Source: Psammoneis japonica
Lineage: Eukaryota
Direction: 5' to 3'
DNA length: 64,000 nt
Assembly (NCBI GenBank): GCA_008632985.1
Contig: QPGO01000164.1
Location: 1-64,000, forward strand
Positions 2,389 through 56,051 of the stretch are shown here, piece by piece. The notes beneath the pieces were generated by a model that saw only the letters and a list, made by a program, of their open reading frames with translations, had not been told where the DNA came from and searched no databases. Both the position numbers and the translations under genes were made by a program. Position 1 is the first letter of the stretch, and each line of letters begins with the position of its first letter.

Positions 2389-3010
2389 AGAGAAATTGTC
2401 CGTTTTGTCGAAAACCCATCGAAACGGATAGAAACTCGCCAACAACGACACTGAACACTCACCATGATGGGCTCGTGCTGTCCCTGTTGGTCTGGTCTGA
2501 CGGAGGTGGCCAGTGTGGACATTGACGCTCCTTCTTAAATTGTGTGGCAAGTCATTTTGGATCTGGATGCCTCTCCATCCTTTCTCTCTTCTGTCGAAAC
2601 TTTGGAACGATCCGGCGGGCCACAGGATGTCGTTTGACATGTGGGAACCAAGTGGAAAGAGTGTCGAGTTTGTCACGGGGACGAGGTCATTTTGAGCAAG
2701 ACTGCAACCAAAATCAACCATGCTGGAGATTCATCTTATGAGGTTCACATTCACAAACATTTTGATGAGGGGTCAACAGCGGCAGACATTGCAAACATGA
2801 GCGCACATTGATGGTGGAGACCCCACCGGCTCTGAATCTTGTCGGCTTGCTTGTTGGAACCTTTGCAATTGCCACTTCTTCAACATGGAACAAGTTGTTG
2901 GAGTGTTTTGGAATGAAGTCAGCTCAAAGAGCTTTTCAAGAAGAACTGTGAGATTGTGAAAAAGAATCTTTGAAATGATGCCAAAAGGATTCATCATCAA
3001 GTGCTGAATC
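2389..3010 (+). pseudogene. Hypermutated inverted copy of the SRPBCC gene at 60309-60868
   Basis: Colinear with the reverse complement of about 60320-60960. Differences are dominated by TA->TG/CA and CG->TG/CA, with stops and indels. Confidence 0.9.
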
Positions 3011-3640
3011 ACAATGACTTGAAAGAAAGAGAGTCAGCCAGGATGTGCATCACATCATGATTTGTCATGCAGCAGCCAATGCAGCACCCACATTGCTGCA
3101 TCTGCACCTGCAATGACACACACACAACTGCAATCACAACAAATCACAAGCTGGGCTGTTTTGTTCATTAAGACAAAATGCATGCTCACAGAGAGTGCCC
3201 TCAATGCCGGCTGCAACCAAGAACAACTCACCTTTTTAGCTGCAGCACTCATGTGGGATGTCCTGAATGTACAAGTGCTTGAACAGGATGTGACACTGGC
3301 ACTGTCATTTGACATGGCATGTGTTGCAGCACACAATCTCAAGAGATGATTGTGTCACCTTTTTCAAGAAAAATGCAAGAGAGCATTTCAGACATTGACA
3401 AGCTTGCCATGATCGACTTTCTCAACAAGGTGTGAGAAAAGGTTTTTAAGCAGCATTTGGGGGGGGAGGGAAGTGGTTGGTGCTGGACCTCCCTGAAATT
3501 GCAACAAGCAAGGAGTGGTGGAAATTCTCTCTAGTTTTGCAGATGCATGAAATTCTGTCCACCAGAAAAGAAATTTAAAAGCGGCGATGATGGAATGGCA
3601 TTTTGTTCCACAACAACGGTGAAGACACTGGCCACTCCTG
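3010..3640. repeat. Hypermutated inverted copy of the intergenic segment at about 57620-58240
   Basis: gacttgaaagaaagagagtcagcc (3016) matches revcomp gactcgaaagaaagagaatcagcc (about 58240). aaattctctctagttttgcagatgcatg (3522) matches revcomp aaattctctctagttctacagatgcgtg (about 57730). Confidence 0.8.
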
Positions 3641-4226
3641 CATCAAACATTGCTGGGCACAGGGGCGTGTGAAATGTGCAAGGGAAAATTGATTGGAAGC
3701 AGCATTCCAACTCTTCTGAATGCACAAGAAATGTGTTTGTTGCAGTTGGGGGCCACGAATCAATTGCCGGCATGTTTTTTTCTGTGTGAAACATGCTGTT
3801 TTGTGTGCCATCTTGCAGAGTCAGTGCCAGGTTCCACCGCAGCCAGAAATGGCATGTTTGCTGTCATGCCATCTGTGCAGATGGCCACACTGGAGAGCAG
3901 CACCACCTCTCACTGAATTTGAGGACACTGTGGGTGTTGCCACTTTGCAAAGAGAATCACATTGGTGGTTGGTCTGCACAATTGTTTCTGCACATGTTTT
4001 GCACTGTCATCCATCCCCACCACCTCCAGCCCAATCCTGACCAGCCTGACTCAAATTTCATTGGGTTTGAGCAGGTGGCAGGAATGGATGATGACAATGC
4101 AAAATGTGCACAGGCGCCAGAAACTGTCACACAGACAGACTGCCACTGCGATTCTCCTTGCAAGTGGCAACACCCAATTGTGCAAGATGGCAGCCACAGA
4201 ACAGTTTCAAGTTGTTGCTTCTGCTG

Positions 4227-5110
4227 GCAATGTCATGTGGTGTGCAGCTGATGCTGTTGTTGTGACAGCAAACAGCGCACCAACTGCCATTGATGACTGG
4301 TGGAGGAGCCAGCAGCACAAAAAACACAATTTTGCAAAGGAAAAAAAAAAAAGCATCAGCATGACAAACATCAACAAAAAGAGAACTTGGAGCTGCAAAA
4401 AAACACCAATCATTGCCATCTTCACAGTTGTTTGGGATTTTTGTTTGTGTGCACAGTTGCCATGTTTCCGGCAATTCCATGGCTGCCAGGTTGTCAGACG
4501 ACAAGGCAAGGTGCAACACTTGGTGCAGCAACATGGACAAGGACAGCAGCACCCCAAAACAATTTGACAGCAACAACAAGCAACATCACTTTGCCTCATC
4601 TCCATGAATGTTGCCGGTCTCCAACCTTCCATGGTTGCTCCAGAAATGTTGGCATTGAGCGACCAGCTCCAGGTGGTTGTGAGACAATTGCTTGCTTCAG
4701 ATCCTCGCATCATTGCACTTCAAGAGTGCCCCTCTGCAGATTGGGCATTGCAAGCAGCAGCCTTTGACAATGACCACGTTCTTTTAATTAGATCTGAAGT
4801 GTTGCGGGTGGGTTGTGTCATCTTGTTTGTCAAGAAGGAGCTTGTTTTGGAATGAGTTGTTGAGCTGCAAGAGAAGAGACACCAGCCATCATGGCAAAAG
4901 CAACACACACTCTCCAACAACTGCAACATCCATGTTGCATCTGTGCACTTGGAACCATTTGTGCAAGGTTCTTTTCTTTGGTGAGACAAAATGCAACAGT
5001 TGCAAAGTGTTTCTAAAACAACATCAATGCCAATGACTTTTTGGGCAGTGCAAATGTGAGAGATGCAGAAGATGTTCCTCAATGCTTGGAAGGAACTTGG
5101 CGCCTTGGAC
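4227..5110 (+). pseudogene. Hypermutated copy 1 of the TDP2-like EEP gene at 56052-57067
   Basis: Residual translation MNVAGLQPSMVAPE...LLASDPRIIALQECPSADWALQ matches the intact gene. Stops and frameshifts present. Confidence 0.9.
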
Positions 5111-5144
5111 AAATCCCCAGAACAATCAATTGCCAATTCAATTG

Positions 5145-5563
5145 ACTGCAATTAAGGGGAGTCATCATTTGCCACTTTTTTGACTTAAATTTGACCAAAC
5201 AGCTTGTGATTTGTGTGATTTTTCTTGAATTTCACTGTGCTTCTTAGTGGTGAAAACATCAAGCCACAAGTCTGCGAAGGAGGTGGTCTGTCTGTCAACT
5301 CTTGTCAGTTTTATGTCCGTTGTGTGTCAAAGGTCACACACCATGAATCAAATGTTTGTGGACGGACCACTGCATTTTGGAGCCATGCCGACATTGCTGC
5401 CATTGCCATGTTTTGATCATGGCACCTGAAGTTCTTGTTTTTGTGCACAGTCGGAGGTGAATGCAAACAATTTTTGCACTCAAAAACAAACACTGCAAAC
5501 ACTCTTGCTCAAATGCCATGGCAATTCTGGATAAATGCGGGGATGACCCCCCTCAATTGCAGT
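5145..5563. mobile_element. MITE-like element with about 22-bp inverted ends
   Basis: 5145-5166 actgcaattaaggggagtcatc vs revcomp of 5542-5563 actgcaattgaggggggtcatc (20/22 match). No coding capacity. Confidence 0.5.
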
Positions 5564-7205
5564 TGTCAATCAATTGCAGCACACCCACCCATTCCCCAAT
5601 GCAAAGAAATGTGCAACTTGTTCAAAGTGCAACAATGGCGAAGGAGACACACCACCACACGAGTGTCCTCGAAATCATTTTGGCAAGGAAAAAATGTGAA
5701 CGGAAGATGGCCAGACCACTGTCATTCTCTCAACAACATTGGACACTGTCAATGATCCACGTGCATCCAGCATTGCACCTTTTTGGAGTTTTGTGGGGGT
5801 CTTCATGAAATCAACAAACTCCTGCAGACAATGTTTCTAGCCAACAGCAGGAAAGCGGCAACAAACAGAACATCAAACAGCAAGCCAAGTGTGGGCAAAC
5901 CTGGAAAACTTTTCAAGATCATCAAGGTGTTGGCACTCCAACTTGGAACAGTGTCAAGAATTTCAGTTTGACAGAGGGCATTGAAAACATCACCCTGCTT
6001 GCTTGGATGGGATGAGTGCACCCAAGGCTGAGTTCTGCAGCTGTGTGGCCCCTCTCCTGCCATTTCTTTCTCCAGCAGATTTCTCGAGGAGGAAGAGGGC
6101 TGGTCAGCAAGCTCGTTGATCATCATTTGTTTGTCCACTTTCTCAATGGCTGCAATCAAGCTCACAGTGGAGACAAAACCACAGCAAGGCCTTGGAAGAG
6201 CTGGAGTGGGTCATCCTTGGATTGGCCATCCTGCAAATCAGAGAGAGGATTTGACTGTTTTTGCATCTCTCTCTTTTCACCCCTGTCAACAACAAGAAGC
6301 TTGGACATTGCAACAAACATGCTTTCTTGTTTTGAAGCATGGACAAAACAAAAGCGAGACCACCCAGGTGAAGGGGGCTGCACCAGCAACAATGACCCCA
6401 CATTCAGAGTTTTTCTGCGAGCATGAGTTTTAACAAATGTGTGTGTTTTTTGTTTTTTCTGTTGCAGCATGCACACAAAAGAGCAACAGATTTGCAAAAC
6501 TCTTGGCGCAGCAACCTGTGTGGCCATCTGAGCAAACACTTGATGAGCAGCCCTGTTGACAACACAAGTCATGAGTTGGCAAAGTTTCAAGAGCCAGAGC
6601 TCTGTCATGTCAAACAACTTTGATGGGTCAAACAATGGGTTGGGCGAGTTGAGGAGATTTGTTTGCTGTTTGTTGTTGATTGTGATGGAAACAGAGAGAG
6701 AGAGAGAGAGAGACAATTGTGACAACAGCCAGAATGAAAATGAGAAGGAAGCTCCTGCTCCTCATTGTCACAACATGAGCAGCTGCACGACTCTTGCTGA
6801 TGTTTCTGCACACTTGCAAAAGAAGCTTGGCGCCAAAGCAATGTGCAGGAAAACCCAGTGTCCACCATTGGCCCTGCCAACTGTGGCCAACAAGGACCCT
6901 GTAATGTGGTTGCGAATGTGGGTTTGACTGTGCTAGCCTTAACGGCAGATGGCCATCACAGCATTGAGAACAGGACAGTGCTGTAGATAGATAAAAGAAT
7001 AGAACACTCTAGCTAGTGGTGGGTAGAGAGCAATGGAGAGTAGATAGAACCACACCTCGTCCCGCGTCTGTCCATTTGTCCGCTCTCCACTGGTGTTCCC
7101 CTGCTCGCTGACTCAATCCAAGAAATTCCAATTTCGTAACTTTCCGCTTTTTGCTTGTGACAATGAGTTCTTCAGGGAAAACACTCTCACCATAGAGACC
7201 GTCAT

Positions 7206-8192
7206 ATGAACATGGGCACTGGCTTTCACTTTCTGATCAAAATGGAGTTGTTCGTTGTGATAATAGTCCTTGCCTTTTGTTGCACTCGAGTGCATGCTTT
7301 CTCCACCACGACAACAGCACATGGCCGCGTGGCGTTTCCAAATTTGGACGAATCCAGTTTTCGGCATTCGCTAGATCGTGATTTGACGTCTCTGGTCCGC
7401 TCGGCACCCTTTTCCAATGTGGCACAAGAAGGGATTCGACGATTCTTGACAATTGTCGAACAAGGCGTACGATTGGATCTCTTGTCCACGTCCGTCAAGG
7501 TATCGGACGAGCAACTCCCAGATCTTTACAATTCCTTGTTGGAGGCGTGCCGTATTTTGGATCTGCCCACGGATAATCCACCAAATCTCTTTGTTCAATC
7601 CAGTCCTCAAGCCAACGCCTACACGCTGGCCTTGCAAGGCACAGACGACAAGGCACCCATTATTGTAGTCACGTCGGCGTTGTTGGATCAGTGCTCCGAG
7701 GCTGAAGTGCAAGCTATTCTAGGACACGAGCTTGGGCACTTAAAATGTGAGCATTCCATTTACTTGACACTAGGAAGCCTAGCCTCGACTCCACTCCAAA
7801 ACTTGCCGTTTGTAGGTCGGTCTACTCAACAATTATTGGAGAGGTGGCGATTGGCGGCCGAGTATACTTGTGATCGAGCAGCGCTACTAGTGGCTCAAGA
7901 CGCCAAGGTTGTCAATGGAGCCATGCTCAAATTGGTTTCGGGGACTGCCAAAACGACAAGCACGGAAGCCTTTGTAGACCAGTGTTTGGAATATGACAAG
8001 TTGTTGAAAAGTGCCAATCCCCTGGTGAGGGCTTCTATTGAAATGCAGCAACGGACACATCCCCTACCTGTACGAAGGGTCGCTGAATTGCAAGACTGGT
8101 CCGAGTCAGATGGCTTTCAACAACTCTTGGCAAGTGGCACTAGTCTGGACAAATACATGAAGGAACCGGTTATGGCAAACGCCGATCTGTAA
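7206..8192 (+). CDS. M48-family (HtpX/Ste24-like) zinc metallopeptidase, probably plastid-targeted; true start likely the Met at 7242
   Basis: HELGH zinc motif, AEYTCDRAA, THP..VRR. Signal peptide ending VHA-F. Confidence 0.9.
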   Translation: MNMGTGFHFLIKMELFVVIIVLAFCCTRVHAFSTTTTAHGRVAFPNLDESSFRHSLDRDLTSLVRSAPFSNVAQEGIRRFLTIVEQGVRLDLLSTSVKVSDEQLPDLYNSLLEACRILDLPTDNPPNLFVQSSPQANAYTLALQGTDDKAPIIVVTSALLDQCSEAEVQAILGHELGHLKCEHSIYLTLGSLASTPLQNLPFVGRSTQQLLERWRLAAEYTCDRAALLVAQDAKVVNGAMLKLVSGTAKTTSTEAFVDQCLEYDKLLKSANPLVRASIEMQQRTHPLPVRRVAELQDWSESDGFQQLLASGTSLDKYMKEPVMANADL

Positions 8193-9197
8193 TGGAAAAA
8201 TAATGTGACAGGTTAAGATGGATAGTAGCTTTCGTTCGCAATGAATATTATCTAGTTCAGAGATACTCTTTGTAATAGCGCTCAGCAATTCTTTGATGGA
8301 GCTCATTGTAACTGAAACATTCCAGCTCTCGCTTGAATTCGCTTGAATTCGAGAGTGAAAAAGGACGTTGCACAGTTTCTTCAAGACGCAGTCACCTACT
8401 GTAGAGTAACAACCTCGTGAGTCACAAAGCGTAGTAGACTACTTAGTAGCTGCAGAATAGGTCTTGTGCAATGTCAGACAACGCAACCGCACGATGCTTC
8501 CTTCCGTCATCCGCACAACATGACATTACACCTTCGAACGGCGACAGACTTTCTGGCGGGAAACCGTGCGTGGCGTGCCGGTCGTGAGCATACCGGAGGT
8601 ATGTGAATAGTAGCGAACTTTTTTTCAGGATCGCCTCACAGACCCCAAGACCCATATATCGGGCGGTGGAAAGCTCTCGACGAGCTGAACAAGGTCAAAC
8701 GCATGTTGTATCGGTCGGAGTGAGCGGAAAGCGAATGTTTGTCGTTGAAAATTTGGTATTTATTTAAAGAAAAATAACGGTTATATTCGCCTTTTTCTAA
8801 TTGATTTTTATATTTATATCCAAACATTAATCGTATCATAAATTTGACATTTAATCCGGAGTTCCGAAATCTCATCCAGGATTGTATACTATATAAATTA
8901 CTTATGGGACACCTTGTTTCTATACTTTGCTCTTGCTCTACAGCTCTTACAACTGAAGATATCGAAAAAAGGCTTTCGTCAGTCGCTGCAACTGGGTGTG
9001 TTTTAGTGACTGACGAAAGCCGATTTTCGACAAGTATTTTTGGTGTCGAGATTTTTCAACAGCAAAAATAACTTCGCTACCATTTACATACCTCCGGTAC
9101 GCACCGAGCGCGATCATCGCGATCATCTTGAATCTTGACGACGACGACTTTTGACGCTTGACACTCTGATGTCACATCATCATTCTTTGATCTCACC

Positions 9198-10313
9198 ATG
9201 TTTAATAGCGGTTCCTCAGCAAGTTTCCCTCTTTTTAGGTCTCTTCGGAGACACGAGCCTCAGTTGGGTGTTTCGGTTCAAAAAGAATTAAAGCGCTTAC
9301 CCAAGGTTCTTGTGCTGTTTTGCGGTGGGACGCTAATCATGCAGAAAAATGAGCATGGCGCTCTTGTGGTACAAAAAAAGGACGAGGCTATTGATTTGTT
9401 GCTCAACTTGGAACCACGGATTCAGGAAGATATCGCAGAGCTCGACGTTGAATTTGTGGATAACATTGATAGCACCAACATGAATCCTGCGTTATGGGAT
9501 AAGATTGGAAGCATCATTCAACTCCATTACGGCGACTATGACGGCTTTGTTATCACTCATGGCACGGATACCATGGCGTATACAGCGAGTGCGCTATCCT
9601 TTTCCTTGGGTGATTTGGGAAAGCCAGTGTGCATCACGGGTGCACAAATTCCGGGATCCGAACTTGAAAGCGATGCTCGACGTAATTTTGTCAATTCCGT
9701 GCGTGTTGCAACCTTTGACAAGGCGGGAGTTTTGCTTGTTTTTGATGAAGACGTTATTCTTGGTGCACGGGCCTCCAAGGTATCCGAGTCCAAGCTCGAG
9801 GGCTTTGCGACAGTGAATTGGGGACTCATGGGTGAATTGCGCATTGATGCTCGATTCAGCGAGGATTGCAAGGATCGCCATGATAGACCCCTCCAGTTCC
9901 TTCCTGGATTCGAGCACCGTGTAGCTGTTTTTACTTTGTTTCCCGGATTTCCGGCATGTCACATGATTGAAGCCGCTGCAAAAAATAAGGATCTGCGAGG
10001 AATTATTCTTCGTGGTTATGGTTCAGGAAATATTAGTTATGAATACATGGAGGCCATCCAGCTTGCTCACGATAACGATGTTGCCGTGGTGGTGGGTACT
10101 CAGTGTTTGGAGGGTGCCACCATGATGCACATCTATGACGTGGGCAAGAAAGCCTTGGATCTTGGTGTTATTCAAGCGTATGACATGAGCCTCGAATGCA
10201 CAATCACAAAACTCATGTGGGCTCTCAACCATACCGAGACTCGTGACGAACTATGCAACGTTATGCACACCAACTTTACCGGCGAAATCAACAAGGAGGG
10301 TAAACTATACTAG
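9198..10313 (+). CDS. Type I L-asparaginase (AnsA-like)
   Basis: CGGTL, NIDSTNM, HGTDTMAY, TGAQIP, GARASK and GYGSGN motifs; single exon. Confidence 0.92.
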   Translation: MFNSGSSASFPLFRSLRRHEPQLGVSVQKELKRLPKVLVLFCGGTLIMQKNEHGALVVQKKDEAIDLLLNLEPRIQEDIAELDVEFVDNIDSTNMNPALWDKIGSIIQLHYGDYDGFVITHGTDTMAYTASALSFSLGDLGKPVCITGAQIPGSELESDARRNFVNSVRVATFDKAGVLLVFDEDVILGARASKVSESKLEGFATVNWGLMGELRIDARFSEDCKDRHDRPLQFLPGFEHRVAVFTLFPGFPACHMIEAAAKNKDLRGIILRGYGSGNISYEYMEAIQLAHDNDVAVVVGTQCLEGATMMHIYDVGKKALDLGVIQAYDMSLECTITKLMWALNHTETRDELCNVMHTNFTGEINKEGKLY

Positions 10314-10979
10314 ATGTGCGAGAAACAAGTGCCAGATTGTTTGAGTTTCAACACTGCAATGCCTTATTTGCACACATGTGCTAATGCACGGTTCATCTTC
10401 ACGTTGTCTCATACCAAACAAAATACTCACAGGCGTTTTTGAAATACTTCAGGTCGCCTCTCGCGATCTACACAATAAATCACAGCACCATGCCAACCTT
10501 GCATGCCGGCGGATTGGTCTATCATCAAGGACAGCCTCATGTCCTTATTCCTGTAACAACGGCCAAATTGTATGAGTGTTTGACGCCGAGACGGGTCTCT
10601 ATCACGTCAATCAAGACGACGAAAATCGCTTTTTTGGGCATCGGTACATCGTCGTGAGAATCCCAGTACGAGGTTCTAACCGTGCCATCCTTTTTTACCG
10701 TGCAATCCCACCTTGGAAATGATGGTTGTAGGAACCTATGCACGTTGTTCCGACAGCATCTTGGGCGGGTCATGACGATTCGTCGGAGTGTCGGTCTTGA
10801 TTAGAGAATCGATTGGCATGGAAACGGAACGCTGGAGCTAATGATTCACCATGGACCTAGCGTACACCATACTTTTCTGAAATGCAACATGCCATCAACA
10901 GACAAGAGTGAGCAGTGAGATCAAAAGCAAGATGGAGAATGCATGTTGCCTTTGATGCAATTTGACAGCACAAAACCCA

Positions 10980-11445
10980 TGAAGAGTGCCATTTGCAAAA
11001 TGTCAGATCAAGAACTGTGGGAGCACAGTTGAGCCAAAGGAGTTGCTTTCAAAGGACATCATTGATGGCCGTGTGACACCGAAAATGAAGCCAAAGGCGG
11101 TCAAGCAGATGCGGCCTGGACACGAGCCGCATCCGCTTCAAAACTTTGGGTCCAACTTGAGAAGCCTCAGAAAAATTTTTAAAGACTCATCAAGACCGGG
11201 CTGATGTGGACAGTGCAGCACTTGCTCATGACCATTGCTTGCATCCAATTGCTGCAACATCATCGCATGGCTGCCCCAGGTGGGAGGGATCAGAGGCCGA
11301 GAAGTTCGTCCAGCAAGACATTGAGGATGACAGCATTTTGGATGTGAAACCCGTGACACTTTGCCAAACCAGACCAGAATGTCAAGCTTTTCCTCTTCGT
11401 ACATTCCAAGACCACACTCATCAAGCAAAATGGGCAAAATGACTT
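10980..11445 (+). pseudogene. Degenerate two-repeat ORF of unknown function, possibly transposon-associated
   Basis: Two internally similar segments (KDIIDG...RPGHEPHPLQNF and QDIEDD...LCQTRPECQAFPLRTF) interrupted by a stop/frameshift. His/Cys occupy positions consistent with former Tyr. Confidence 0.4.
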
Positions 11446-12639
11446 GGTTGCATTGGCTTAATTGCTACAAAAAGAAAAAGCAGGCAAAGTGGAACGGGCA
11501 CAGGTGATTTGCATTGGTTGTCATCTCTGGATGTCAATTGTTTAGATTGGCTCAAATCTTGAACAAAACACTTGCCATGCAGCACAATGGCCAGCACCAG
11601 TCATTCTGTCCTTGGCTTGCTTGTCGCTCATTTTAGATCTCACCAACAAGTTGCACCTTGATCGTTGCCGTTTGTTCTGCACTGTCACCATGCCATGCAG
11701 CCAGTGTGATGCAGTGCACTGTTGAGCCAATTGATTGATTGTTTGAGACCACACGCAGTGTTGTCACAATTGTGCCCACAACACCACGACAATTTTGCAG
11801 GTTTTGGCAATTGCTGAAACATGGCAGGTTTCAGCAGAATCTGGCAAAACACGCAGCAGGTTTCAGCAATTGCTCAAACATGCATTTTTGGTGATGCACG
11901 GCTGGAAGGTGCTGTTAAATGTCAGGGGTCTGTGGTGATGAAGGGGTGGGTTGGCAGGAATGTGTGGTGAGAGGGTGGTGCAGAGTGTGCTGAGTGATGG
12001 AGAGAAAAAAGACCGGCCAAGGGTTTTGACAGATGGTCAAGAGGAGGAGTTGTCATTGACAATTGGCTTGGCGTGCAGAGAGGTGGTTGGAGAGAGTGAT
12101 GCCAAAGTCAAGGTTGAAGATTTGTGAGGTGCGCAAAGAAGTTAGGGTGTTGCGGCATGATGGTGGGAGGTGCCAAAGTGGTTTGGTGACACTTGTTGCT
12201 TCCAGGCATTGCTTGAGTGGGTGAGGAAGTTGAAGGGGAGCAGGAGTGAGTTTTTGAAGGCAGAGAAGGAAGCTCAGGAGTTGGAGAGGGAAAATCAACC
12301 AGCCCAAGGTGGTTTGGGAGGAAGAAGAGAGGGATGGAGGAGGATGTTGTGGCGGAGACACCAAAAAAGAAAACGTGGAAGTGGCGTGGATGCCACCCAG
12401 GCAATTGAAGACAAAAGGAGGAGGAAAGTCATGCTTGATTGACAGTGTTGACAATGTTGGAGCAGCAGGCGGATGACACAGTTTGGCCAAGGAGCCAGGA
12501 GGTGGGGGAGCTGGTGGTGTTGTTTGATGTCTGAAGAACATGCCCAGGCAAACTAGAAATTGTGATGCATTTCAAGTGTGGAGGAGGAGACACATTCACC
12601 AAATTGCCTCTTTCTGATGTTGGCAATCACTCACATGTT

Positions 12640-15310: not shown

Positions 15311-16458
15311 CAGCTGGCAGCATGCATTGGATCGACAGGAAGTGAGAAGTGAGAGGGAAAGAGAAAGTGTGTGTGACCACTTTTGGACTCCCTCAACTAA
15401 ATGTGCATTGGTGCATGCCTGTCTGTCTCACTGGGTGTGAGTTTGCCCCACACCTCAACAGGCAGGCGCCTCTCCAGCTCCAGCCAATCCAAACCCTGCC
15501 CCCGCCTGTTGGAATTCACCCTTCCAGTGACCACTTCAGAGCCACTTCAGTCCTCTGAGGTCTGATCATGAGGGCAAAATAAACAAGCTTGTTGTCACAA
15601 TGCTTTCTAAGAGTTGAAAAAGAACAGCAATGATGGCGCTTCTCCGGCAGCCCCCACATCGTGCTTCGTGCAGAGCACATGAGTGCTGATGCATGAGTCT
15701 TCTTTGCACCATTGCATTTGGGCACTTGAGCTTTTAATCTTTTTTTGAACACATTTGCCTGCTCCTGCTGACCAATGATTTGATGCTTCTCTGGACGGCT
15801 GTGTCTGTGTGAAAACAGGCAGATGAAGACAACAGAATTGATTTTCTCGCCACATTGGCCCATTGTCACTGCCACAGCAATTCTGGCTATCTTCAGACTG
15901 TGCACTCCTCAACTTTTGTGTGAGCTTGAGTCTGCAAACGATTTGGAAGTCACCAAATGCAATTGGAGGTTTCAGAGTCGTCCCTGATTTTGATGTCGTC
16001 GCTCTTTTGGATTCACTCTGTTCCTCTCCAGACTTGTCTTTGGATTCCACCATTTTCTCTGGCGCAAGGATCGTGAAGATTCAAGATGATCCACCTTGAG
16101 GACAACCTTCAAAAGCAGCCATGGTTGAGGCTAAGGTCAATCTTCCGACTCGTCAGTGGCGCATCAGGCAGATTTGGGCGATGCATGCCACTGCAGGATT
16201 GGCGATGCGAGCTCTCGCTCCGGCATCTTTCATGCAGGCCTAACTCCAACCCCATGCAAAGCTGCCTCTGCAATGATGTAGCTCATAACCCATCTAAACA
16301 AACAAGCAAAAATCCAACAACAAATTTCGCGACCGACCGCCGATGGCCGACCCGCACCTCTCATCACAACCAGGCTCCTTCTCTCGAACCAAGCCATCTC
16401 TCTCTATCCTGAAGAAGACGTGACGCATGTATAAAAGCTGCTTTGGCATGGCGCAGAG

Positions 16459-40279: not shown

Positions 40280-40364
40280 GTTGCAGCAGCAATGTGCCGA
40301 CTGCCATTGGTGTCTGGAGGAGCTGGCAGCAGCACAAGAAAGCACAACAAATGCCAACAAGAGC

Positions 40365-40398
<34 letters not shown>

Positions 40399-41331: not shown

Positions 41332-41461
41332 TTGCCTGTTGTTTGTTTGCTCTACAGAGAAAAAGCCGAAGAGAAGATGACATTACAAATAATTTATTGC
41401 CTGTTGTTTGTTTGCTCTTCAGAGAAAAAGCCCAAGAGAAGATGACATTACAAATAATTTA
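41332..41461. repeat. 65-bp tandem duplication downstream of STT3
   Basis: ttgcctgttgtttgtttgctct.cagagaaaaagcc.aagagaagatgacattacaaataattta occurs twice. Confidence 0.9.
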
Positions 41462-41528
41462 TCTAGATGAATTACATGCCGACATGACTATCGCAAACTC
41501 TCAACTACGCTGCGCCAGAAAAAAAGCC

Positions 41529-45869: not shown

Positions 45870-46439
45870 TGAAACAAATTCAAGATGAGCTTGACGGACA
45901 GGGTGGGACAAATCATACAAATCTTAGAGTATTAATTGTAGGTTCTTTACATGAATATCTCCACGGACAGTTTTCTCCAATTTCGAATCCATCATGGAAT
46001 GGGGGGTTTGCTTTTTTTCAACAAAAAAAGAAAAAGAAATGCTTGCCGTATGCATCACAAAAGGCCAGGGCATGGGCATTCATGACATTTTGGATCATGG
46101 CGCTTGCCTTTCATACACAATGTGCAAAGTCGAGCCAACATCTTTCCAAACTAGGTACACACCCTCATCCCGATGCAAGCGTTTCCACACATGTTCAGCA
46201 TTATACTCACAAGTCAAAACACTCGGTTTCAAAAATCTGAAAAACGACTTTTTCAATTCAATCTTAAAATTTACACATCTTCATAATGTCAACGGCCATA
46301 TACAAAAAAGCTTGGTCACGCCTGGTTTTCCCTCTTTCAATCCACAACCATGGATGGGGTCATAGAATGTCACTTCACAAAACAATGCAAACATAAAGTT
46401 GCGAGGAAAAAGACACCAGCAGAATCCTGCATGTGTCAC

Positions 46440-49140
46440 CACCCCTGTGGAAGATTTTCAGTCATTGTGTCTGGCGAGACAGCGTCTTGCAGTCACTGCT
46501 GCCATCAACCAATGACATTTGAAGTCTGCATTTTTAGCTTGAATGGTCTCCATCAATGCATCCATCAAGACTGCAGTTGACCATGAGTCTTGATTCCAAA
46601 GTTTTTAACTTTGCCACTAACATTTGGCACACCCACCACATGTCCCATGCTGTGTTCCAAACACACTCTGTGTTCTGGCACTCTTGTGCACCCAAGAAAT
46701 TTGCAGCATCATGCCTCTTTGTTGTGCTGCTGCTGCCCACTCAATTGCTGGGTGTGTCCTTGTGTCAAGGAGCTCTCCTCAAAAGACACTTGTGTTGCTG
46801 TGAAAGCAGCTTGTGTGCATGGAAAATTGGACCAAGGGGTGAGGACAGGAGGTTGAGGACTGGATGTGTGAGTTAACCCACCAACCACTTCTCAACATTG
46901 TCTTTTTTCTTGGACTCTGCAATTCCTGCCTGGGTCAAACAAGCACCGCACCACAGCAGCACATGATCAGTGCCTCTTTCTTCTTCACTGCAGCCTGCAG
47001 CATCTTGAACATGCCAGGTTCTCAAGTTTTTCCATCAACAAAAAGGTTGTGGTTGGTTGGAACAAAGCTGGCACTCCATCATGGTTGCTCAATTTGTTGG
47101 AATGCAGGACACGTCATTGTGCAGCTCTGCCCGCTGCCTCTCCCAGTCAATGGCCGTGTGCGCCAGTTCCATGCTCAACTTTTCAGACCAGTGCGATGTT
47201 CTTGTTCAACAAGTGGGGGCTTTGCACACACAATCTAGTGCTGTCTGGGGTTGTGCTGCAAGAAGTCACAGGCTCTCCTTGGAGCTCAGCCACCCAGCTC
47301 TTTTTTGGACTTTCACAAGAGACACCGCCCCCTGTTCATTGGTCAAAGCCTCCCAGTGCACCTTTGTGAGTTGGCCCATTTTTTAACATGCTGCTCAACT
47401 GTTTCAGGTGCAACAGTTCCTGGAGTGTTGCACACCACTTGTCTTTCTGTGCTTGGGCTGCTTCTGGGGCTGCAGCAACAGAGATTGCCTCAAAGATCTC
47501 AGCTGGCAAGTTTTGGGATGAGGGCATCATCATGTGCCACACTGCAAAAACATGTGTGTGCAAGCTTGCACCACAGTGACATGTCAGGGCTGCTTTTTGT
47601 CATTTCTGATGTTGAAGTGCCAGCACATTTTCTGAATGAACACCGCTGGCCCAAAAATGCCGCCCAGTGCTCTCTCCCATGCATGTGAAGATGAGCCCCC
47701 CTCCTTCTTTGCTGGTGGGCAGATCATTTTTTTAGGCCTGACATGCCAACAATGAGCTGCTTGGAAACCATGGCCCAAATGCTTCAGAATCTTTGCTGCT
47801 GCAACGTCAAGTGCAATGGATGTCACAGACTCTGCAGCCAAGACCATGACAAATCACAAGCAAAAACTCGCTCTGACGCCATTTGTCTTTTTGTTCAGTG
47901 CATGCATGCAAATGCTGCACCGCATTGCTGCAGGCAGGAAGGCTTGTTGTTGTGGTGCTGGTGCCGGGTGGGTGGACCCTTCCTGACAGGTGGTCAGAAC
48001 GGCCGTCTTTCTTCCACGCGCGTGCGCCGGCCACCGGACCCCTCAAAGACAGCAACACAAGCGAACACAATGATGCTCTGATCCATTGTCAACGCAGTTG
48101 CTGCACTTCCACACGACGGATGCAGGGCTGCTCCATGAATGTATCAGTTCTCGAGGTTTGGCGCGGGAGCATTGGTTGGGATTTGAGACTTCGACAACAA
48201 CTGGTTGCGATGACACGGCATCTGCAACACAACGAGCTCATTGACGACTGTTCCGAGAAGCAATCTTTCTTCAAAGAGGAGCGGCAAGTGTCCACGCAAG
48301 TTGATTGGCGATTTCGTAAATCGTCAACCCAATGAGTTGCTGATTTTTTATCAGGATCAAGACAACCAGGACTTGCTGGTGATGAACATTCAACATGGGT
48401 GCATGGTGCTCAGGATCTCATGCTGATGCAATTGTTGAGCAGTTCACGAATGCTGTGATCCAGTGCCCCGCTTCTGTTCCTGTGGCCGAAGATGATTCCA
48501 CGGAACAAAACCATGCTGGCAGTTGGCAAATCAGAATGCTGCAGCAGCTGGTGATCAGGTTGGAAAAGAATTTGCTTTGAAAGAAGGCAGCAACAGCATT
48601 TCGAAAATGGGCAGTGACATGTCCTTCCTCACCAGCAAAAAACCAAGCGTTCGAGCTCAATGCAAGCAAGGAGAGGAGGATTCATTCACAGCAGAACTCA
48701 CCAGTGGCCGCAATCCTGTGCAAAATGGGAGCCCAGCAGAGGATGAATCTGGTGAAAATTCCAGGTTGCGCAGGAGCCTTGAAGTCATGGCGGATGAGAT
48801 GCCAACACCAACGCAGTCTGTGCACACTTTGAACCCCACTCCAGCTCGAAATCACAATGAAGTCAAAGGCTGCACTGTGTCTTCAGAAGATGCATCGCAC
48901 ACTGTGAAAAAAGGAAGAGCTAGAGATGGTTGGACACCTCTGGTGTTTGAGGGGGGCATCACTCACAATCACTCACAATCAACATTGGTGCTGAGCAACA
49001 GGCGACGTTCTTTCGATGAAGCACTGTTTTGTCCCAATCGCAGAGCATCCGCGGCTTTCTCTGAATGAACACAAAGTTCCATTGTGTTCCCATGTCCTGT
49101 GGCATAGATTCCGCACTGACTGTAGACTTGTCACTGCCGA
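46440..49140 (+). repeat. Direct duplicate of about 53250-55760, hypermutated along its whole length
   Basis: cctgtggaaga.tttcagtcattgtgtc at 46444 and 53251; continuous similarity of 48080-49140 to 54680-55760. Confidence 0.9.
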
Positions 49141-49259
49141 ACATTTTTGCAACAGCATGAAGCCCACAGATGAATTGTCGCGCTTTGCCAAACATCCTTG
49201 TGCAGTGCGAAAGGATTTTTTGTCGCACCGCTGCTCTCCAGTGGCAGATGTGATGGTGT

Positions 49260-49950
49260 GGAGTTGCAATGGTGCCCACATCGTTGACATCATCAGTGGT
49301 GCATTTTTTGGTGTTCTGTGTTGTTGTCAGAAAATCCAAGTGCACAAACAAATCTTTGGACAGTTTGCACATGGTTTGATGCAAATGGAAATTGGCAGTC
49401 GTTGAGTCCCAATGACGCGAGCATGAAACCAAGTGTCTGGACCCACTTTTGGGGTGTGCGACGTGACTTTTTTGATTCTGCCTTGTGCAAGCAATTTGCC
49501 AAGAAAATGGCCTTTTGTGCTTGCCTTTGCAGCACTGAAGAGCAACGACGGCATGGTCATTGTTGACAAATGACAGTGCGAATGACATTTGGCATCTGCC
49601 CGCACGTGGCATCAAATTTTTTCAATTGGGTGTCCAGTGTCATGTGTGGGTCGACAGCCGAGAAGTGATCAAACTTGATGATGACAAAGTCATTGTGCCC
49701 TCAACACCCCACACAAATGGCCAAGCTTTGTGGAACATTCTGCCCAATTGCTGTCATGGGAAGAGTGCCTTTGACTCTTGGACTGCAACATGGGCTGGGA
49801 CCCACATGCAACGGCAACCACAAAGCAAAGGTTCAAGAGAAGATTTTGACATTGCAATGTGGTCTTGCAGTGGTTGAGATTTTCCCACAAGAGTTGCAGG
49901 CACAGGCAACCACTTCATTGGTGCATGAGCATGTGCTCATTGTGCAAAAC
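49260..49950 (+). pseudogene. Hypermutated, internally deleted copy of the glycosyltransferase locus (about 51165-51220 joined to about 52155-52830)
   Basis: WFDANGNWQSLSPNDASMKPSVWTHFWGVRRDFFDSALCKQFAKKMAFCACLCST vs intact WFDANGYWQSLSPNGGMRPSVWTHFWGVRRDFFDSALYKQFAEKMAFYTYLYRT. Confidence 0.92.
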
Positions 49951-51393
49951 TGTCGCTGACTGTCTGCTGCTGATTTGTGTCATTCCAACACTGCTTGTGC
50001 CATGCTCAAAACAATTTCAGCCAGAGCAAATCAGCAAATGATGATGCAGCTCTTTGTCACAATGGAATCATCTCCACAGAAAGAAATGACAAAGTGTCTG
50101 CTGTTTCAGAAGCTGTCTCTCTCTCTCTCTCTCTCAAAAGAGCCTGCCCAGGCACAGAAGCCACCCTGGCCCAGTCAAGAAATCCGTGGACTTTGCTCTG
50201 ACAAACTGACTGCCAGCACTGCAACTTCTCAAGCAGCTCTGCCAGCTGTGCTCTCATGCTGCCACTGTTGCAGCAGCTGCTGGACAGGGCACTTTTGCCA
50301 TTGGACAACAAGAATTTGTGCACCCGGCACATTGATCTCCATGATCAGGAGGTTTTGCTGTCCTTGTGCCGCTGCTTTGACCATTGACAATGCACCAAAA
50401 AAGGCAAAGCATGCCAAAAAAGGTTGCTTTTTCTGATTGTTGAAGCAGAAATGGGGAGGGCAGGCAAACTGGTGTCTTGGCACAAGTTGCTTTTGGTTGG
50501 ATGACAGCAACATTTCTGAAAAGGGTGCAGAGGTGCTTCTGTGGCAGGGTTGAAATCAACACAACTGGCACAGTCAAAGCACTTGCTGTTGTCATGCAGC
50601 AAGCTTGGTTTGACAGGCTTGCAAACACTGTCCATGCTGTCTCCAGGAACAAATGATGCCTCTGCTTGCACTTGGGTCTGCTTTGGCACTCTTGTTGGCA
50701 TCCACTGTTGACCCAGCCAAGGTGCTGCATCTCTGCAGAAATGCTGCTGGCACAATGAGGGCACACAAGGGCTGAACAAGGGACTCTTTTTTGCATGAAG
50801 CAGATCTGCAATGCAATGACATTGCACATCCTGGAGCTGGGGCAATGGGAGAAGCACTGTGAGACAAGAGTGCAGTGCTGAAGGTCCTCACAACATGGCT
50901 GGGAATCTAGCTGGAGTGCACGGCAGCAGATCGGCGCTGCAGAGTTGAAAATTGATGGGGCAACTGGGAAGGGTTGATGGCAATGCTGTTGAGAAAATTG
51001 TCGTCAACCCATGTCGTGACTCCACCTCCACAAAATTGACATCTGGATGGACCAACACCACCCATGGTCGACTTGTTGTGCAAGCAAAGAGAAGATTCAG
51101 CCCTTGTGCAGCGGAGCCTTTTTCAATTCAACACCAAACGATTTTTTGTCTCACCTCTGCTCGTAATGGTGCCCACATCTTTGACAGGTGCATTTTTTGG
51201 TTTTCTTTTGTGTTTTTCTCGATGTGATTCGGCGCTCGACAAAAAAAAAGGTTTTTGCCGATGCGAGCTTTTTGACGTTTTTCGAAAAGTCTGCATTACC
51301 GGCAAGAACGCAACACCGCACAAGAAAAGAGTTCATTAGGATGGCAACTATCTTGCGGAGAAGAAGTGAATCGTATAAAACATAGAAACTGCG

Positions 51394-52661
51394 ATGAGAA
51401 ACCCCACGAGCATCCCCAGGAGAAAAGCGAAGCGGAAAAGCAATTCATTTTCCACTGTGATTGTGATTGGTTTGTTGCTGTTGGCATTCAACATCATCGC
51501 TTTCAGGTCGGTGAGGAGTCGTCCTCGCAGCGATGAAGAATGGACCACCAGTTGTCGCACGACGCCCCCCTCTTCATCACGGCAAGAATCATCACCACCC
51601 ATTAAAGGGGTTTTTGTCATCAAGGCGGCAAAGGCAGAGCACGTCGCTAAAACCTTGTGCAGTTTGACCCACTTTTTCAACGCCCGTTACCCGGTACGCA
51701 TTTTTGTCGATACAGTCGATGTGGATGACGACGTGTTGAAAACCTTGCAAACGTTTGCAGGGAATGGAACGGATCTCAAAGTGATTCCCGATCCAACACA
51801 AAAATGGACCCGACTCCCCTCTCATTTCAATGCCACCCAACGAAAGCTCGTGCTCCAACAGTGTCAAGAGTTTGACACTCATCCCGAACGGGCACGGTGT
51901 ACCACCATGAAGTTCCCTCTCGGTTACGTTTATATGAACTATTGGAACTATGCCATTATGCCGTACGAACCAGAATTACAACAATTTGACTACATTTTGA
52001 GCTTGGATGCCGATGCCTTTTTGACACAGCCGTGGAGTAGTGTGGATCCGTTTGAACTCATGGATCGTCACCGATTGACCGGAGTCTATGACATTCAAGC
52101 ATTTCAAAGTGGCGACATTGCCATGGGCATTCAAGAATCGGTCTCGGAGCTGTTCGAGAAATCCAAGCGTAGAAACAAATCTTTGGATATTTGCCGTGGT
52201 TTGATGCAAATGGATATTGGCAGTCGTTGAGCCCCAACGGAGGCATGCGGCCGAGTGTCTGGACCCACTTTTGGGGTGTGCGACGAGACTTTTTTGATTC
52301 CGCCTTGTACAAGCAATTTGCCGAGAAAATGGCCTTTTATACCTACCTTTACCGCACCGACGAGCAACCAGTTATTGGGGCGGCATGGGCATTGTTGGCA
52401 AACGACAGCGCAAACGACATTTGGTATCTTCCCGCACGTGGCATTCAATTGGGTGTCTATCATCATGGGTGGGTGGATAATCGAGAAGTGATCAAACTAG
52501 ACAAAAAGGAAGACGATGAAAGACATTATGCCGTCAATACTCTACACGAATGGCCGCGCTTTACGGAACATCCTACCCAATTACTGTCGTGGGAAGAGTA
52601 CCTTCGACTCTCAGGCAACGACGTGGGTTGGGACCTGTGTGCGACGGCAACCACAAAGTAA
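51394..52661 (+). CDS. Type II membrane glycosyltransferase, GT15/Kre2 mannosyltransferase-like (1-bp frame break near 52188)
   Basis: N-terminal TM helix, GYVYMNYW, PELQQFDYILSLDADAF (DxD), RRDFF.S..Y..F, YR.DEQ. Confidence 0.7.
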
Positions 52662-54735
52662 GGGTCTTATCATACGGTAATATAACAGCATCCACATTGC
52701 ATTACAGCCTACTGAGAGGAGTTTGATATATTGCAATGTGGTCTTTTGCGGCGGTTGAGATTAACTTTCCCAAGAGTCGCAGACACAGGCAACCGCTTCT
52801 CGTGCAAGCATGCACTCATTGTGCAAAACTATTACTCTGGAGTGCTGTACTATTACCTGTAGTTGAAGCTTGCGTGTCCGCGGAGGTCCGAGTGACTTCC
52901 TAACCTGTCGGTTGGATGTCCAGTCAACACCAACACCTCACACAGAATGCGAGTAGATAGTACCCACTGACTAGTACTATCGAGTATTCAGTCTACAGTC
53001 TTCACAAAACCACTAGTGACCAAATTATAAGCTACCCAAAACTGAATCTCGTGAATGCCAAAATAGAGAGTTTCCCGTGCACTTGTACTAGGAGATGGTA
53101 CAAGTCTCAGGGTAACACTCAAACAAACAATCAACCAAATGCTGCTGAAGTAAACCATGACAGTTCCAACACATAGCCATTGCCTGCCGGTATGATATCC
53201 AAAGCGATGGGTCTATGATCTCCAAAGCAACGAGTTCAGAAAGTGGGCAACCTGTGGAAGAATTTCAGTCATTGTGTCAAGTGAGACAGTGGCTTCTTTT
53301 GCAGCTGCTGCTGCCTCCAGCCAATGACATTTGCTTGAAGTCCATGTTTTCAGCTTGAATGATCTCCATCAATGCACCCATCAATGATGTGGTTGACAGC
53401 TGGTCTTGATTCTGAAGTTTCCAACTCTTTCACTCACACTGTGTTGTTCCAGAGTTGTCATCAGTCCAGAAACCCACTGCAATCTGAGTCTCTCCTTGCA
53501 TCCAAGAAATGCGCAGCACACTTGTTGCGCTGCTTCCTGCTCAATTGCCGGGTGTCCTTGTGCCAAGGAGCTTTCCTCCAAAGACACTTTGCCATGAAAG
53601 CAGCCTGTGTGTGGGCAATTAGACCAAGGGGTGAGAACAGGAGGTTGTTTCATGCCACTTCCATTTCATTTGGTTCATCCAAAAGTCAAGGTTTGGGTGT
53701 GTGAGTTGCGCCCATTGACCACTTCTCAAGATTCTCTTTTTTCTTGGACCCAGCAGTTGCCAAGGTTGTGGTTGGTTGGAACAAAGCTGGCACTCCATCA
53801 TGGCACATCATTGCACAGCTCTGCCTGTTGCCTCTCCCAGTCCCCCGGTCAATGGCCACATGTGCTGGCTCCATGCCCAACTTCTTGTGCCAGCATTCTG
53901 CACTCGACCCAGTGCTGTCTGGGGTTGCTGCAAGAGGTCACAGTCTTTCCTTGGAGCTCAGTGGCTGCTGCTTTGCCATTTCTGATGTCACAGTGCTGGC
54001 AGACATTTTGAATGAATGCAGCTGGCCCAAAGATGCCACCCAGGGCTCCCCTCTGCATGGTGCTGAGTCTTCCTCCTTGAAGCCGCTGCTCCTCCTGGCT
54101 GGAGAGGAGCAGCTTGGCTCTCTCCTCTGCAGCATCTCTGTGGTGGGTGGATCATTGTTTTTTAGGCCTGACAGACCAATGGAAAAATGTGGAAACTGCA
54201 ACCCAAGCACTTCAAAACCTTTGTTGCTGCAACATCAAACATGACAGACCTCTCTGACTCCTCAGCCCAGATCACGACAAATCAGCACACGATCGACACA
54301 CAAGCAAAGCAATGCTCCAACACGACAATGACAATGACCGCCACAATGGCATTGAATTTCCACCTCATGGCAGTGAAAATAACACCATTAGAATCACAGC
54401 ACTTTATTTAGTCTATGTGCCATTTATCTTTTTGTACAGTGCGTGCAAATGCTGCACCGCATTGACAGCAGGAAGGCTTGTTGACGAGCCCGCGTCTATG
54501 GTGCCCTACCTGACAGGTGGTCAGAACGTCGTGTTTCTTCCGCGCGCCGCGCCTCGCTCTATCTCCGCCGAAAAAATGCGCAAGTCCATAGACATACGGT
54601 ACATACTATTGTAGCCCTACGATGTTCTGACGGCCGCGAGAGACACCATTAGCATTAACACAATGATGCACAAGGCTCTCTGATCCCTCGTCAACGCAGT
54701 CGCTGCACTACACACGACGTATACAGGACTGCTCC

Positions 54736-55532
54736 ATGAATGTCATCAGTTCTCGAGGCTTGGCGCGGGAGCAGTGGTTAGGGTTTGAGAATTCGACAAC
54801 ATCTGGTTGCGACGACACGGCATCTGTAATCACAACGAGCTCATCGACGACCGTTCCGAGCAGCAACCTATCTTCAAAGAGGAGCGGCAAGTATCCATGC
54901 AAGTCGATTGGCGATTTTGTAAATCGTCAACCCAATGATTTTCTAGTTATTTATCAGGATCAAGACAATCAGGACTTGCTGGTGACGAGCATTCAACATA
55001 TGGTGCATGGTGCTCAGGATCTCAGCCGTGAGGCAATTGTTGAGCAGTTCACGAACGCTGTGATCCAGTGCCCCGCTTCTATTCCTGCGGCCGAAGATGA
55101 TTCCACGGAACAAACCATGCTGGCCGCTCGGAAAATCAGAATGCTGCAGCAGCTGGTGATCAGGTTGGAAAAGAATTTGCTTTGAAAGAAGACAGCGACA
55201 GCATTTCGAAAATGGGCAGTGACATGTCCTCGTCCTCAACAGCAAATAAACCAAGTGTTCGAGCTCAATACAAGCAAGGAGAGGAGGATTTATCCATAGT
55301 AGAACTCCCCAGTGGCCGCAATCCTGTGCAAAACGGGAGCCCAGCAGAGGATGGATCTAGTGAAAATTCCAGGTTGCGCAGGAGTCTTGAAGTAATGGCG
55401 GACGGGATACCAACACCATCGGGGTCTGTGCAAACTTTGAACCCCATTGAAGTTCGAAACCCCAATGAAGTTGAAGGGTGCACTGTGTCTTCAGAAGATG
55501 CATCGCACACTGCGAAAAAAAGGAAGAGTTAG
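54736..55532 (+). pseudogene. Unknown Ser-rich ORF in two frames; less-mutated partner of 48130-48950
   Basis: Two abutting ORFs (149 and 116 aa); the break at about 55183 is shared with the duplicate. No recognised motif. Confidence 0.35.
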
Positions 55533-56051
55533 AGATGGTTGGTCGGAAGTGGACACCTGTTGTTGGAAGGGGTGTTGGAGGGAGCATCACTCACAATCGA
55601 CATTGGCATTGAGCAACGGACGAGGACTTGGTTCGAAGAAGCTGTTTTGTCCCAATGACAGAGTGTCCGCGGCTTTCTCTGAATGAAACACAAAGTTCTG
55701 TTGTGTTCCCATATCCTGTAGCATAGATTCAGCACTAACTATAGACTTGTCAATGCTGAACATATCCTTACAACAGTATGAATCCTACTTGAATGGTCCT
55801 ACCCCACCTGTCTACTAATTTATATTGCCGTTATGATTGAGACTCTTGTCTGCGCTTCCACTTTCTGAACGACGTGCCAAAGCTCATGTTTACTCGTACA
55901 CAAAATTTGGCGTCTCACAATCACAATAAAGTCCTTGTTGCTACCACTCTGTATTATGGAAGCGAGAAGACCTTTTGCAATGATTTGCCCTTTGTGATTT
56001 TGTAGAGTGCAAGTTGTGTCAGTTTTCATGCTCCAGCGCTCGAACATTGTT

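Follow-up and report, generated by a model that had tools for sequence, protein, structure and literature searches.

Why are some stretches of a diatom genome almost free of the dinucleotide TpA, while the genes between them are not? This question is raised by a 64,000-nucleotide stretch of Psammoneis japonica DNA (assembly GCA_008632985.1, contig QPGO01000164.1, positions 1 to 64,000 of the forward strand; hereafter the window), in which a first-pass annotation had described blocks that nearly lack TpA, and mostly CpG, and that abound in TpG and CpA. Using the composition of 500-bp windows and a TpA-based segmentation, both expressed as observed/expected ratios, we recovered seven such blocks at coordinates that agree with the earlier ones to ~100-700 bp. 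We consider it probable that these blocks are non-functional duplicated diatom DNA, made up of decayed copies of neighboring genes, after a locally confined and context-specific transition hypermutation.

Seven blocks of the window are purged of TpA

For the window as a whole, the observed/expected ratios were 0.32 for TpA, 0.65 for CpG, 1.44 for TpG, and 1.46 for CpA. The seven blocks, 1.2-5.8 kb each, had TpA ratios of 0.03-0.11, CpG ratios of 0.17-0.61, and TpG/CpA ratios of 1.55-1.97. Genes and promoters between the blocks had TpA at ~0.4-1.2 (genes ~0.4-0.9, with ~0.5 being typical) and CpG at ~0.8-1.4 (~1.0 being typical of the genes). Set against the value typical of these genes, the block values confirm that the depletion is restricted to domains.

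2381-6940: block 1, TpA/CpG-purged; TpA 0.06 (21 TpA in 4560 bp), CpG 0.26
10861-16580: block 2, TpA/CpG-purged; TpA 0.11, CpG 0.28 (segment 10861-16680); without a partner in the window
24201-28640: block 3, TpA/CpG-purged; TpA 0.08, CpG 0.19; without a partner in the window
33521-34940: block 4, TpA-purged; TpA 0.08, CpG 0.61
37181-41380: block 5, TpA/CpG-purged, the most extreme; TpA 0.03 (8 TpA in 4200 bp), CpG 0.17
46321-51300: block 6, TpA/CpG-purged; TpA 0.08, CpG 0.42 (segment 46321-51920)
53201-54400: block 7, TpA/CpG-purged; TpA 0.07, CpG 0.19

The TpA borders of the blocks, sharp to ~50 bp, were located at the following positions, 100-600 bp away from the neighboring open reading frames (ORFs).

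2379/2429, 6902-6940, 10870, 24247, 28589, and 33543
34882-34924, 37187-37250, 41283-41353, 46394, 53214, and 54380

Because TpA loss leaves the blocks nearly free of TAA and TAG stops, they contain long spurious ORFs: 138 stop-to-stop ORFs of at least 90 aa overlap in all six frames, and none gave a credible Pfam match. Purged blocks of this kind can mislead gene prediction in this genome.

Blocks with a partner are diverged copies of sequences elsewhere in the window

Self-BLASTN of the window showed that the blocks for which a partner was found are diverged copies, at 65-87% identity, of sequences elsewhere in the window. The copies and partners are as follows.

2401-5073 (block 1): inverted, colinear decayed copy of 60922-56358; BLASTN identity 71-81%
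39144-40953 (block 5): second decayed copy of 57753-56491; BLASTN identity 71-72%
Block 6: mosaic in which 53251-55798, 52159-52830, and, inverted, the part 32059-33038 of a leucine-rich repeat (LRR) gene are present as decayed copies; BLASTN identity 65-87%
50021-50907 (block 6): decayed copy of part of the LRR gene
31976-33412, minus strand: intact LRR gene (LRR_6, E = 4.4e-23), partner of 50021-50907
56358-60922: unpurged reference region; TpA 0.35-0.73 and CpG 0.79-1.5 in 500-bp windows
56052-56852, minus strand: Exo_endo_phos ORF (Pfam)
60309-60854, minus strand: Polyketide_cyc2 gene (Pfam), separated by a spacer from the Exo_endo_phos ORF
54669-55798: mostly unpurged, paired with 48066-49179; of all pairs the youngest, 86.6% identity

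Within block 6, positions 46444-49951 copy 53251-55798 and 52159-52830. The partners 56358-60922, 32059-33038, 52159-52830, and 54669-55798 retain normal TpA. Block 7 is homologous to 46444-47856, and here both copies are purged, with a mean column identity of 81% in the alignment; among the partners compared, 46444-47856/53251-54284 is the sole pair of this kind. Block 3 contains internal, diverged direct repeats (73-90% identity).

Contigs from a public run also place the block sequences in multi-copy families. We placed 787 such contigs on positions 1-20000, of which 545 fell short of 95% similarity. Within blocks 1 and 2 the summed depth rose in places to ~1000, compared with 55-77 in single-copy bins; it is this excess that indicates multiple copies. 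Two further bins, 8005-9338 and 1-667, had a summed contig depth of ~300-965 and yet no TpA depletion; a short repeat, simple or dispersed, is the probable cause. Positions 8501-9000 had TpA at 0.85 and CpG at 1.43, with a 4-base length variant at 8660.

The first-pass annotation had spoken of duplicated and mobile DNA. Duplication is borne out by the self-BLASTN partners; mobility is not, as no reverse transcriptase (RT), integrase, or transposase family matched any of the 138 block ORFs or the 20 ORFs of the partner regions, and on these grounds we rejected a transposon origin of the blocks. Decayed versions of the Exo_endo_phos ORF lie in blocks 1 and 5, and the region of this ORF is the most multi-copy among the placed contigs. 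No RT domain was found adjacent to the ORF, and its match to Exo_endo_phos_2 was weak (E = 0.032); given the lack of an RT domain beside it, an origin from a long interspersed nuclear element would be conjectural.

TpA is converted to TpG or CpA in a narrow sequence context

The direction of change had been read by the first-pass annotation from two pairs of 18-mers (52335-52352/49513-49530, and the reverse complement of 60609-60626/2698-2715), both of which proved exact. In a three-copy alignment of an intact sequence with two decayed copies, 20 intact-TpA sites were converted in both decayed copies, 10 with the same and 10 with the opposite outcome; among CpG sites converted in both, 19 had the same and 15 the opposite outcome. 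Opposite TpG and CpA outcomes find their simplest explanation in an ancestral TpA that changed once in each lineage, and they show that the copies were affected independently. This parsimony, together with Tyr-to-Cys changes through TGY codons in a pseudogene described below, supports the proposed direction from TpA to TpG/CpA.

We derived a substitution spectrum from 10 alignments of decayed with intact sequence (~5250 aligned bases), in which intact 56358-57753 was used against two decayed copies, so that counts are comparisons and not all unique sites. Among 152 TpA, 65 had become TpG and 52 CpA (117 converted), and 10 were kept. Among 255 CpG, 94 had become TpG and 74 CpA (168 converted), and 59 were still CpG. 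Retention of the remaining 14 dinucleotides was 0.60-0.82, with CpA at 0.82. In total, there were 928 substitutions (607 transitions and 321 transversions), and there were indels as well. The near-equal numbers of TpG and CpA arising from TpA agree with the earlier claim that both strands are affected.

A-to-G change depended strongly on the 5' base, occurring at 116 of 299 TpA (0.39) compared with 79 of 801 ApA (0.099), 67 of 831 CpA (0.081), and 41 of 693 GpA (0.059). The first-pass annotation had made its reading depend on A-to-G change being more frequent at TpA than in the other NpA contexts, and this is what we found (0.39 against 0.06-0.10). C-to-T change was similarly concentrated at CpG (169/490, 0.345) relative to other contexts (0.066-0.074; 35-57 of 476-843). 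Within TpA, the 3' base also mattered: A-to-G change reached 0.51 in TAC, 0.44 in TAT, 0.34 in TAG, and 0.13 in TAA, and TTAC became TTGC 11 times and TCAC once. Outside TpA, AAC and AAT (0.15-0.16) stood above the remaining contexts. GC-biased gene conversion was considered as a cause and rejected, since A-to-G change is at background level outside TpA.

TpA loss outpaces CpG loss and is separable from it

TpA loss proceeds faster than CpG loss, a point that goes beyond the first-pass annotation. In the three youngest pairs, whose divergence outside TpA and CpG was 0.077-0.084, 6 of 71 TpA were kept compared with 51 of 105 CpG. For the pair 54669-55798/48066-49179, at a background divergence of 7.7%, the numbers were 5 of 30 and 31 of 48. 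By our own arithmetic, the counts for the three youngest pairs correspond to ~2.5 decay units per TpA and ~0.7 per CpG, as compared with ~0.08 per background site. The two losses also part in space. At the block edges 2400-2840 and 34600-34880, the TpA-free stretch reaches past the CpG-poor stretch; the right ~280 bp of block 4 lack TpA but are dense in CpG, which returns from 34603, and TpA is back only at 34882-34924.

The same separation is seen on a larger scale in a pseudogene next to block 2.

16582-22493, plus strand: bacterial-type nonribosomal peptide synthetase (NRPS) pseudogene in four frames, with a partial adenylation (A) domain, a thiolation (peptidyl carrier protein) domain, two condensation domains, and a C-terminal beta-lactamase fold

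Its TpA ratio was 0.14 and its CpG ratio 0.78 (17021-21700). At least three breaks interrupt its reading frame. ORF 16582-16926 overlaps ORF 16772-19915, which is read in another frame, and the Condensation profile covers 6-145 in ORF 19696-20463 and continues with 150-435 in ORF 20460-22493, past a frame change at 20452/20463. TpA was scarce in each of the three codon phases, and tyrosine made up 0.9% of residues compared with 1.8-4.1% in most neighboring genes. At four A-domain positions, cysteine (TGC or TGT) was found where bacterial homologues carry tyrosine, three of them relative to LgrA and the fourth relative to P0122, as read from alignments at these four motif positions only. We take these positions to be the tyrosines of the A1, A3, A5, and A6 core motifs. 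Every named homologue among the 120 matches listed was bacterial (28-35% identity), and a metagenome scan found no relative. The NRPS bins had ~2x the contig depth of single-copy sequence. We read the NRPS as a young pseudogene that lost most of its TpA before its CpG and stands at an early stage of the purge; its break-up into four frames suggests a gene that was probably acquired horizontally and is now decaying. Since it is poor in TpA at a near-normal CpG, the TpA process is independent of 5-methylcytosine deamination events.

These observations bear on error-prone repair, in which deaminated 5-methylcytosine (T:G) or other lesions would recruit a Pol eta-like polymerase that inserts G opposite T at WA sites (W, A or T). 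The order of A-to-G rates (TpA, ApA, CpA, then GpA) does follow a W-A preference, AAC and AAT exceed the other non-TpA contexts, and TpA loss co-occurs with CpG decay in most blocks. However, the excess of TpA over ApA, put at ~tenfold, is far steeper than the WA hotspot, and TpA loss precedes CpG loss and occurs alone in the NRPS and at block edges. We therefore regard such repair as an unlikely source of the pattern.

The NRPS likewise speaks to the idea that TpA and CpG are selected against in the blocks themselves, for example to escape a nuclease, a TA-targeting transposase, or RNA decay at UpA and CpG. Joint suppression of CpG and UpA with an excess of CpA and UpG is known from RNA viruses and some mRNAs. 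Yet the blocks are broken gene copies without a function recognizable by Pfam, their depletion is strand-symmetric and far stronger (0.03-0.1) than any selected avoidance known to us, and in the NRPS the changes replace tyrosine by cysteine in catalytic motifs. Selection of this kind is extremely improbable.

Sites change one by one, on either strand

We found no strand-coherent tracts of the type that repeat-induced point mutation, APOBEC, or ADAR leave on one strand: for TpA, TpG and CpA outcomes formed 62 runs compared with 63.1 +/- 4.7 in shuffles, for CpG 84 compared with 82.1 +/- 5.6, and for both combined 128 compared with 137.8 +/- 7.5. Strand-coherent editing was rejected on these counts. 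Each palindromic site is resolved on a random strand and independently of the others, as in CpG decay; this, too, is new relative to the first-pass annotation.

A sub-variant of the hypermutation that we favor would compress it into one or a few episodes, a homology-triggered burst (premeiotic, for example) akin to repeat-induced point mutation (RIP); it would mutate TpA, and CpG with it, in duplicates. Several observations suit it. All purged segments for which a partner could be identified are duplicates; in both copies of the pair 46444/53251, the TpA-free zone sets in no more than ~50 bp from where homology starts; ~92% of TpA is gone at ~8% background divergence; and the depth of the NRPS hints at a second copy. 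In addition, the both-purged part of the pair (73% identity) is about twice as diverged as the adjoining part in which one copy is purged (87%), and we counted by eye ~nine sites in the alignment of block 7 with 46444-47856 that are discordant between TpG and CpA. A methyltransferase related to the fungal RIP protein RID, DNMT4, is present in diatoms with unknown function, according to Hoguin et al. (PMC9998398). On the other side, the partners 56358-60922, 54669-55798, and the LRR gene retain TpA, and strand-coherent tracts are absent. Of the edges, two coincide with the start of homology (~50 bp) but one purge, that of the copy in block 7, ends at 54380 inside a homology that continues to 55798. 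The blocks also occupy whole inter-gene spaces, in some parts with no partner detected in the window, and blocks 2-4 have none there. On balance, such a burst seems to us somewhat unlikely.

The loss is local

Could the conversion of TpA to TpG/CpA simply be the neutral mutation spectrum of the species, with purifying selection retaining TpA in genes and promoters and no targeting at all? The blocks coincide with non-functional DNA, ending short of the ORFs, and TpA is already low (~0.5) in ordinary genes, as this explanation would have it. Against it, intact genes hold abundant TpA at codon junctions, where selection is weak (raw counts, with no expectation computed: asparaginase 26, LRR 23, STT3 23), some intergenic 500-bp windows have TpA ratios of 0.85-1.17, and TpA-dense promoter or simple sequence adjoins the blocks (28784-28903 and 35037-35235). 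A rate at least 15x the background, as implied here, would have stripped synonymous TpA from genes and removed it from intergenic DNA had it acted everywhere; the process is therefore probably not the genome-wide spectrum. In a mutation-accumulation study of Phaeodactylum (PMC6604790), the mutagenic contexts are CG, CC, and TG with a GC-to-AT bias, and not TpA loss. We consider an untargeted spectrum decidedly unlikely.

The segment 35037-35235 deserves a remark of its own. It holds ~35 TpA in 200 bp, spaced 3-10 bp apart, and, lying ~100 bp past the right-hand edge of block 4, illustrates how local the TpA loss is.

An artefact of sequencing or assembly would arise if modified bases in heterochromatin (5-methylcytosine, N6-methyladenine, 5-hydroxymethyluracil, or base J) were misread. 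Both changes are transitions at sites able to carry symmetric modifications, and the public run that we used for confirmation has no recorded library type and may be the very source of the assembly. A misread base should nevertheless give all TpG or all CpA per molecule, and the two outcomes are finely interspersed; the copies differ also by the 321 transversions among the 928 substitutions and by indels, and at the same sites the two decayed copies disagree with one another. Furthermore, contigs of that run at a k-mer depth of 55-70 match 11187-13543, 13709-15612, and 6095-6988 with 2, 1, and 3 differences, respectively; noisy reads would not match 2.3 kb with 2 differences. Misreading is accordingly very unlikely to account for the blocks.

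The window is nuclear diatom DNA

The gene content of the window is of eukaryotic type, with Pfam families for pseudouridine synthase, M48 peptidase, asparaginase, LRR protein, kinase, STT3, and ArfGAP. The STT3 gene was 66-70% identical to those of Seminavis and Cylindrotheca, the best named matches, and 64-67% identical to those of Nitzschia, Thalassiosira, and Cyclotella. The window is nuclear diatom DNA. No Rfam families or tRNAs were found in it, and no RNA record was listed for positions 1501-11500. The sequence contains one N, at position 62349.

Weighing a probable targeted hypermutation of silenced or duplicated DNA

Taken together, these data favor targeted, context-specific hypermutation of duplicated DNA, and several points weigh against that reading. 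The evidence comes from a single 64-kb window of one genome. The alignments, at 65-87% identity, contain some misaligned columns. The silenced state of the blocks is one that we infer, and the provenance of the confirming run, described above, may leave it less than independent. A tandem 333-bp repeat (29792-31328, 4.6 copies, 91% matches) is unpurged, with moderately low TpA (0.23) and normal CpG (0.97); it lies in an open 897-aa ORF (28889-31582, plus strand) with a weak match to a GCM domain (E = 9.6e-07). Finally, the intact partners of the decayed copies are unpurged, so that a strict homology trigger would need rescue by selection. Selection for the functional copy could reconcile such a trigger with the untouched partners.

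The process that we envisage removes both self-complementary pyrimidine-purine steps and leaves TpG and CpA in their place. Its first and faster component turns TpA into TpG or CpA by an A:T-to-G:C change on either strand, best at T-A-Y (Y, pyrimidine). Its second turns CpG into TpG or CpA, the ordinary outcome of 5-methylcytosine deamination. Active genes, promoters, and TpA at codon junctions are spared, and the process would be linked to whether the DNA is silent or duplicated rather than to a genome-wide mutation spectrum. Methylation would be a plausible cause of the CpG loss, given that repeats in diatoms carry CpG methylation (PMC9998398, introduction).

As the first-pass annotation had argued, neither 5-methylcytosine deamination nor fungal RIP accounts for the A:T-to-G:C part. 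For this chemistry, our preferred guess would be enzymatic deamination of adenine to inosine, read as G, on either strand, by a candidate deaminase that would prefer a 5' T and a 3' pyrimidine; the T-A-C optimum presumably resembles the anticodon-loop context of TadA/ADAT. As a second choice, thymine might be modified or oxidized to 5-hydroxymethyluracil or 5-formyluracil by a TET/JBP-type enzyme and mispair with G. A mutable, symmetric N6-methyladenine at TpA would be a further candidate, as would Pol eta-like patch synthesis, although for the latter the W-A preference is weak in our data and the separation from CpG loss speaks against it. With no strand asymmetry in double-stranded data, A-directed and T-directed chemistry are indistinguishable.

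Relation to known systems

To our knowledge, the known forms of repeat- or domain-directed DNA hypermutation (RIP, CpG decay, AID/APOBEC) all start from cytosine. The closest parallel is fungal RIP, which depends on RID/DNMT4 and DIM-2, acts premeiotically, and is likewise a dinucleotide-specific transition hypermutation that ruins gene copies. RIP is confined to duplicated DNA, with sharp edges near the ends of duplications, a pattern to which the blocks may correspond in part. Unlike RIP, which changes C to T at CpA and creates TpA, the process seen here destroys TpA (10/152 kept) and keeps CpA at 0.82. RIP also mutates all copies, whereas four partners (56358-60922, 32059-33038, 52159-52830, and 54669-55798) were spared here, and strand-coherent tracts are absent.

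Methyl-CpG decay in vertebrates and in methylated repeats shares the conversion of a self-complementary dinucleotide to TpG/CpA, site by site and on either strand, in silent repeats, and it is probably the CpG half of the pattern. It cannot produce the A:T-to-G:C change at TpA, which is faster than CpG loss and occurs also where CpG is still normal. The T:G repair by Vsr in E. coli, reportedly proposed by Bhagwat and McClelland in 1992 to deplete CTAG in favor of CCAG and CTGG, also turns a TA-containing word into CA and TG words and is linked to cytosine methylation. That effect is bacterial, confined to specific 4-5-mers, genome-wide, and mild, whereas here every TpA in a domain is subject to loss, very fast and independently of CpG.

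The A:T phase of immunoglobulin somatic hypermutation, carried out by MSH2/6 and Pol eta with WA hotspots, resembles our data in its local A-to-G change at an A that follows T or A. It starts from U:G lesions made by AID, depends on transcription, is strand-biased, and has a modest preference for TA over AA, as opposed to the ~tenfold TpA excess and the near-equal TpG and CpA outcomes found here. TadA, ADAT2-3, and the base editors derived from TadA convert A to inosine with a strong preference for a 5' U or T, and TadA for a 3' C; the natural enzymes act on RNA. TAC is correspondingly the most mutable context in the blocks (0.51), and the preference for a 5' T (A-to-G 0.39 at TpA versus 0.06-0.10) recalls A-to-I hyperediting of the ADAR/ADAT type. 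Hyperediting fixed in DNA would leave one-strand clusters and pass through an RNA copy; we see no strand-coherent tracts, and the copies are colinear multi-gene DNA segments with spacers. A natural deaminase acting on adenine within chromosomal DNA is not known to us.

A full-text literature search, with subscription journals outside its coverage, found no description of domain-restricted TpA-to-TpG/CpA hypermutation in diatoms or elsewhere. On the strength of that search, we rate the logic of repeat- or silence-associated hypermutation as known, and the TpA-specific A:T-to-G:C chemistry as previously undescribed.

Implications

A domain-restricted A:T-to-G:C process at TpA that outpaces methyl-CpG decay would add a new mutational force to the evolution of eukaryotic genomes. 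We suggest, tentatively and as a possibility that may well prove wrong, that diatoms have a natural chromosomal A:T-editing pathway, a mirror image of RIP in which an adenine deaminase (or a thymine-modifying enzyme) acts at TpA in silenced or duplicated DNA. If so, this pathway would clear TpA in a brief span of evolution and inactivate gene copies through Tyr-to-Cys and Tyr-to-His changes and the loss of TATA-like signals, ahead of and independently of cytosine methylation. It might also be wired to the orphan, RID-like DNMT4, which Hoguin et al. (PMC9998398) describe as widespread in diatoms and absent from Phaeodactylum; we treat this methyltransferase as a lead, not as evidence. If the process is enzymatic, it could be the source of a natural A-to-G editor of DNA, adenine- or thymine-directed, and as such of biotechnological interest. 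For diatoms themselves, the finding bears on the quick death of gene duplicates and on the role of DNMT4.

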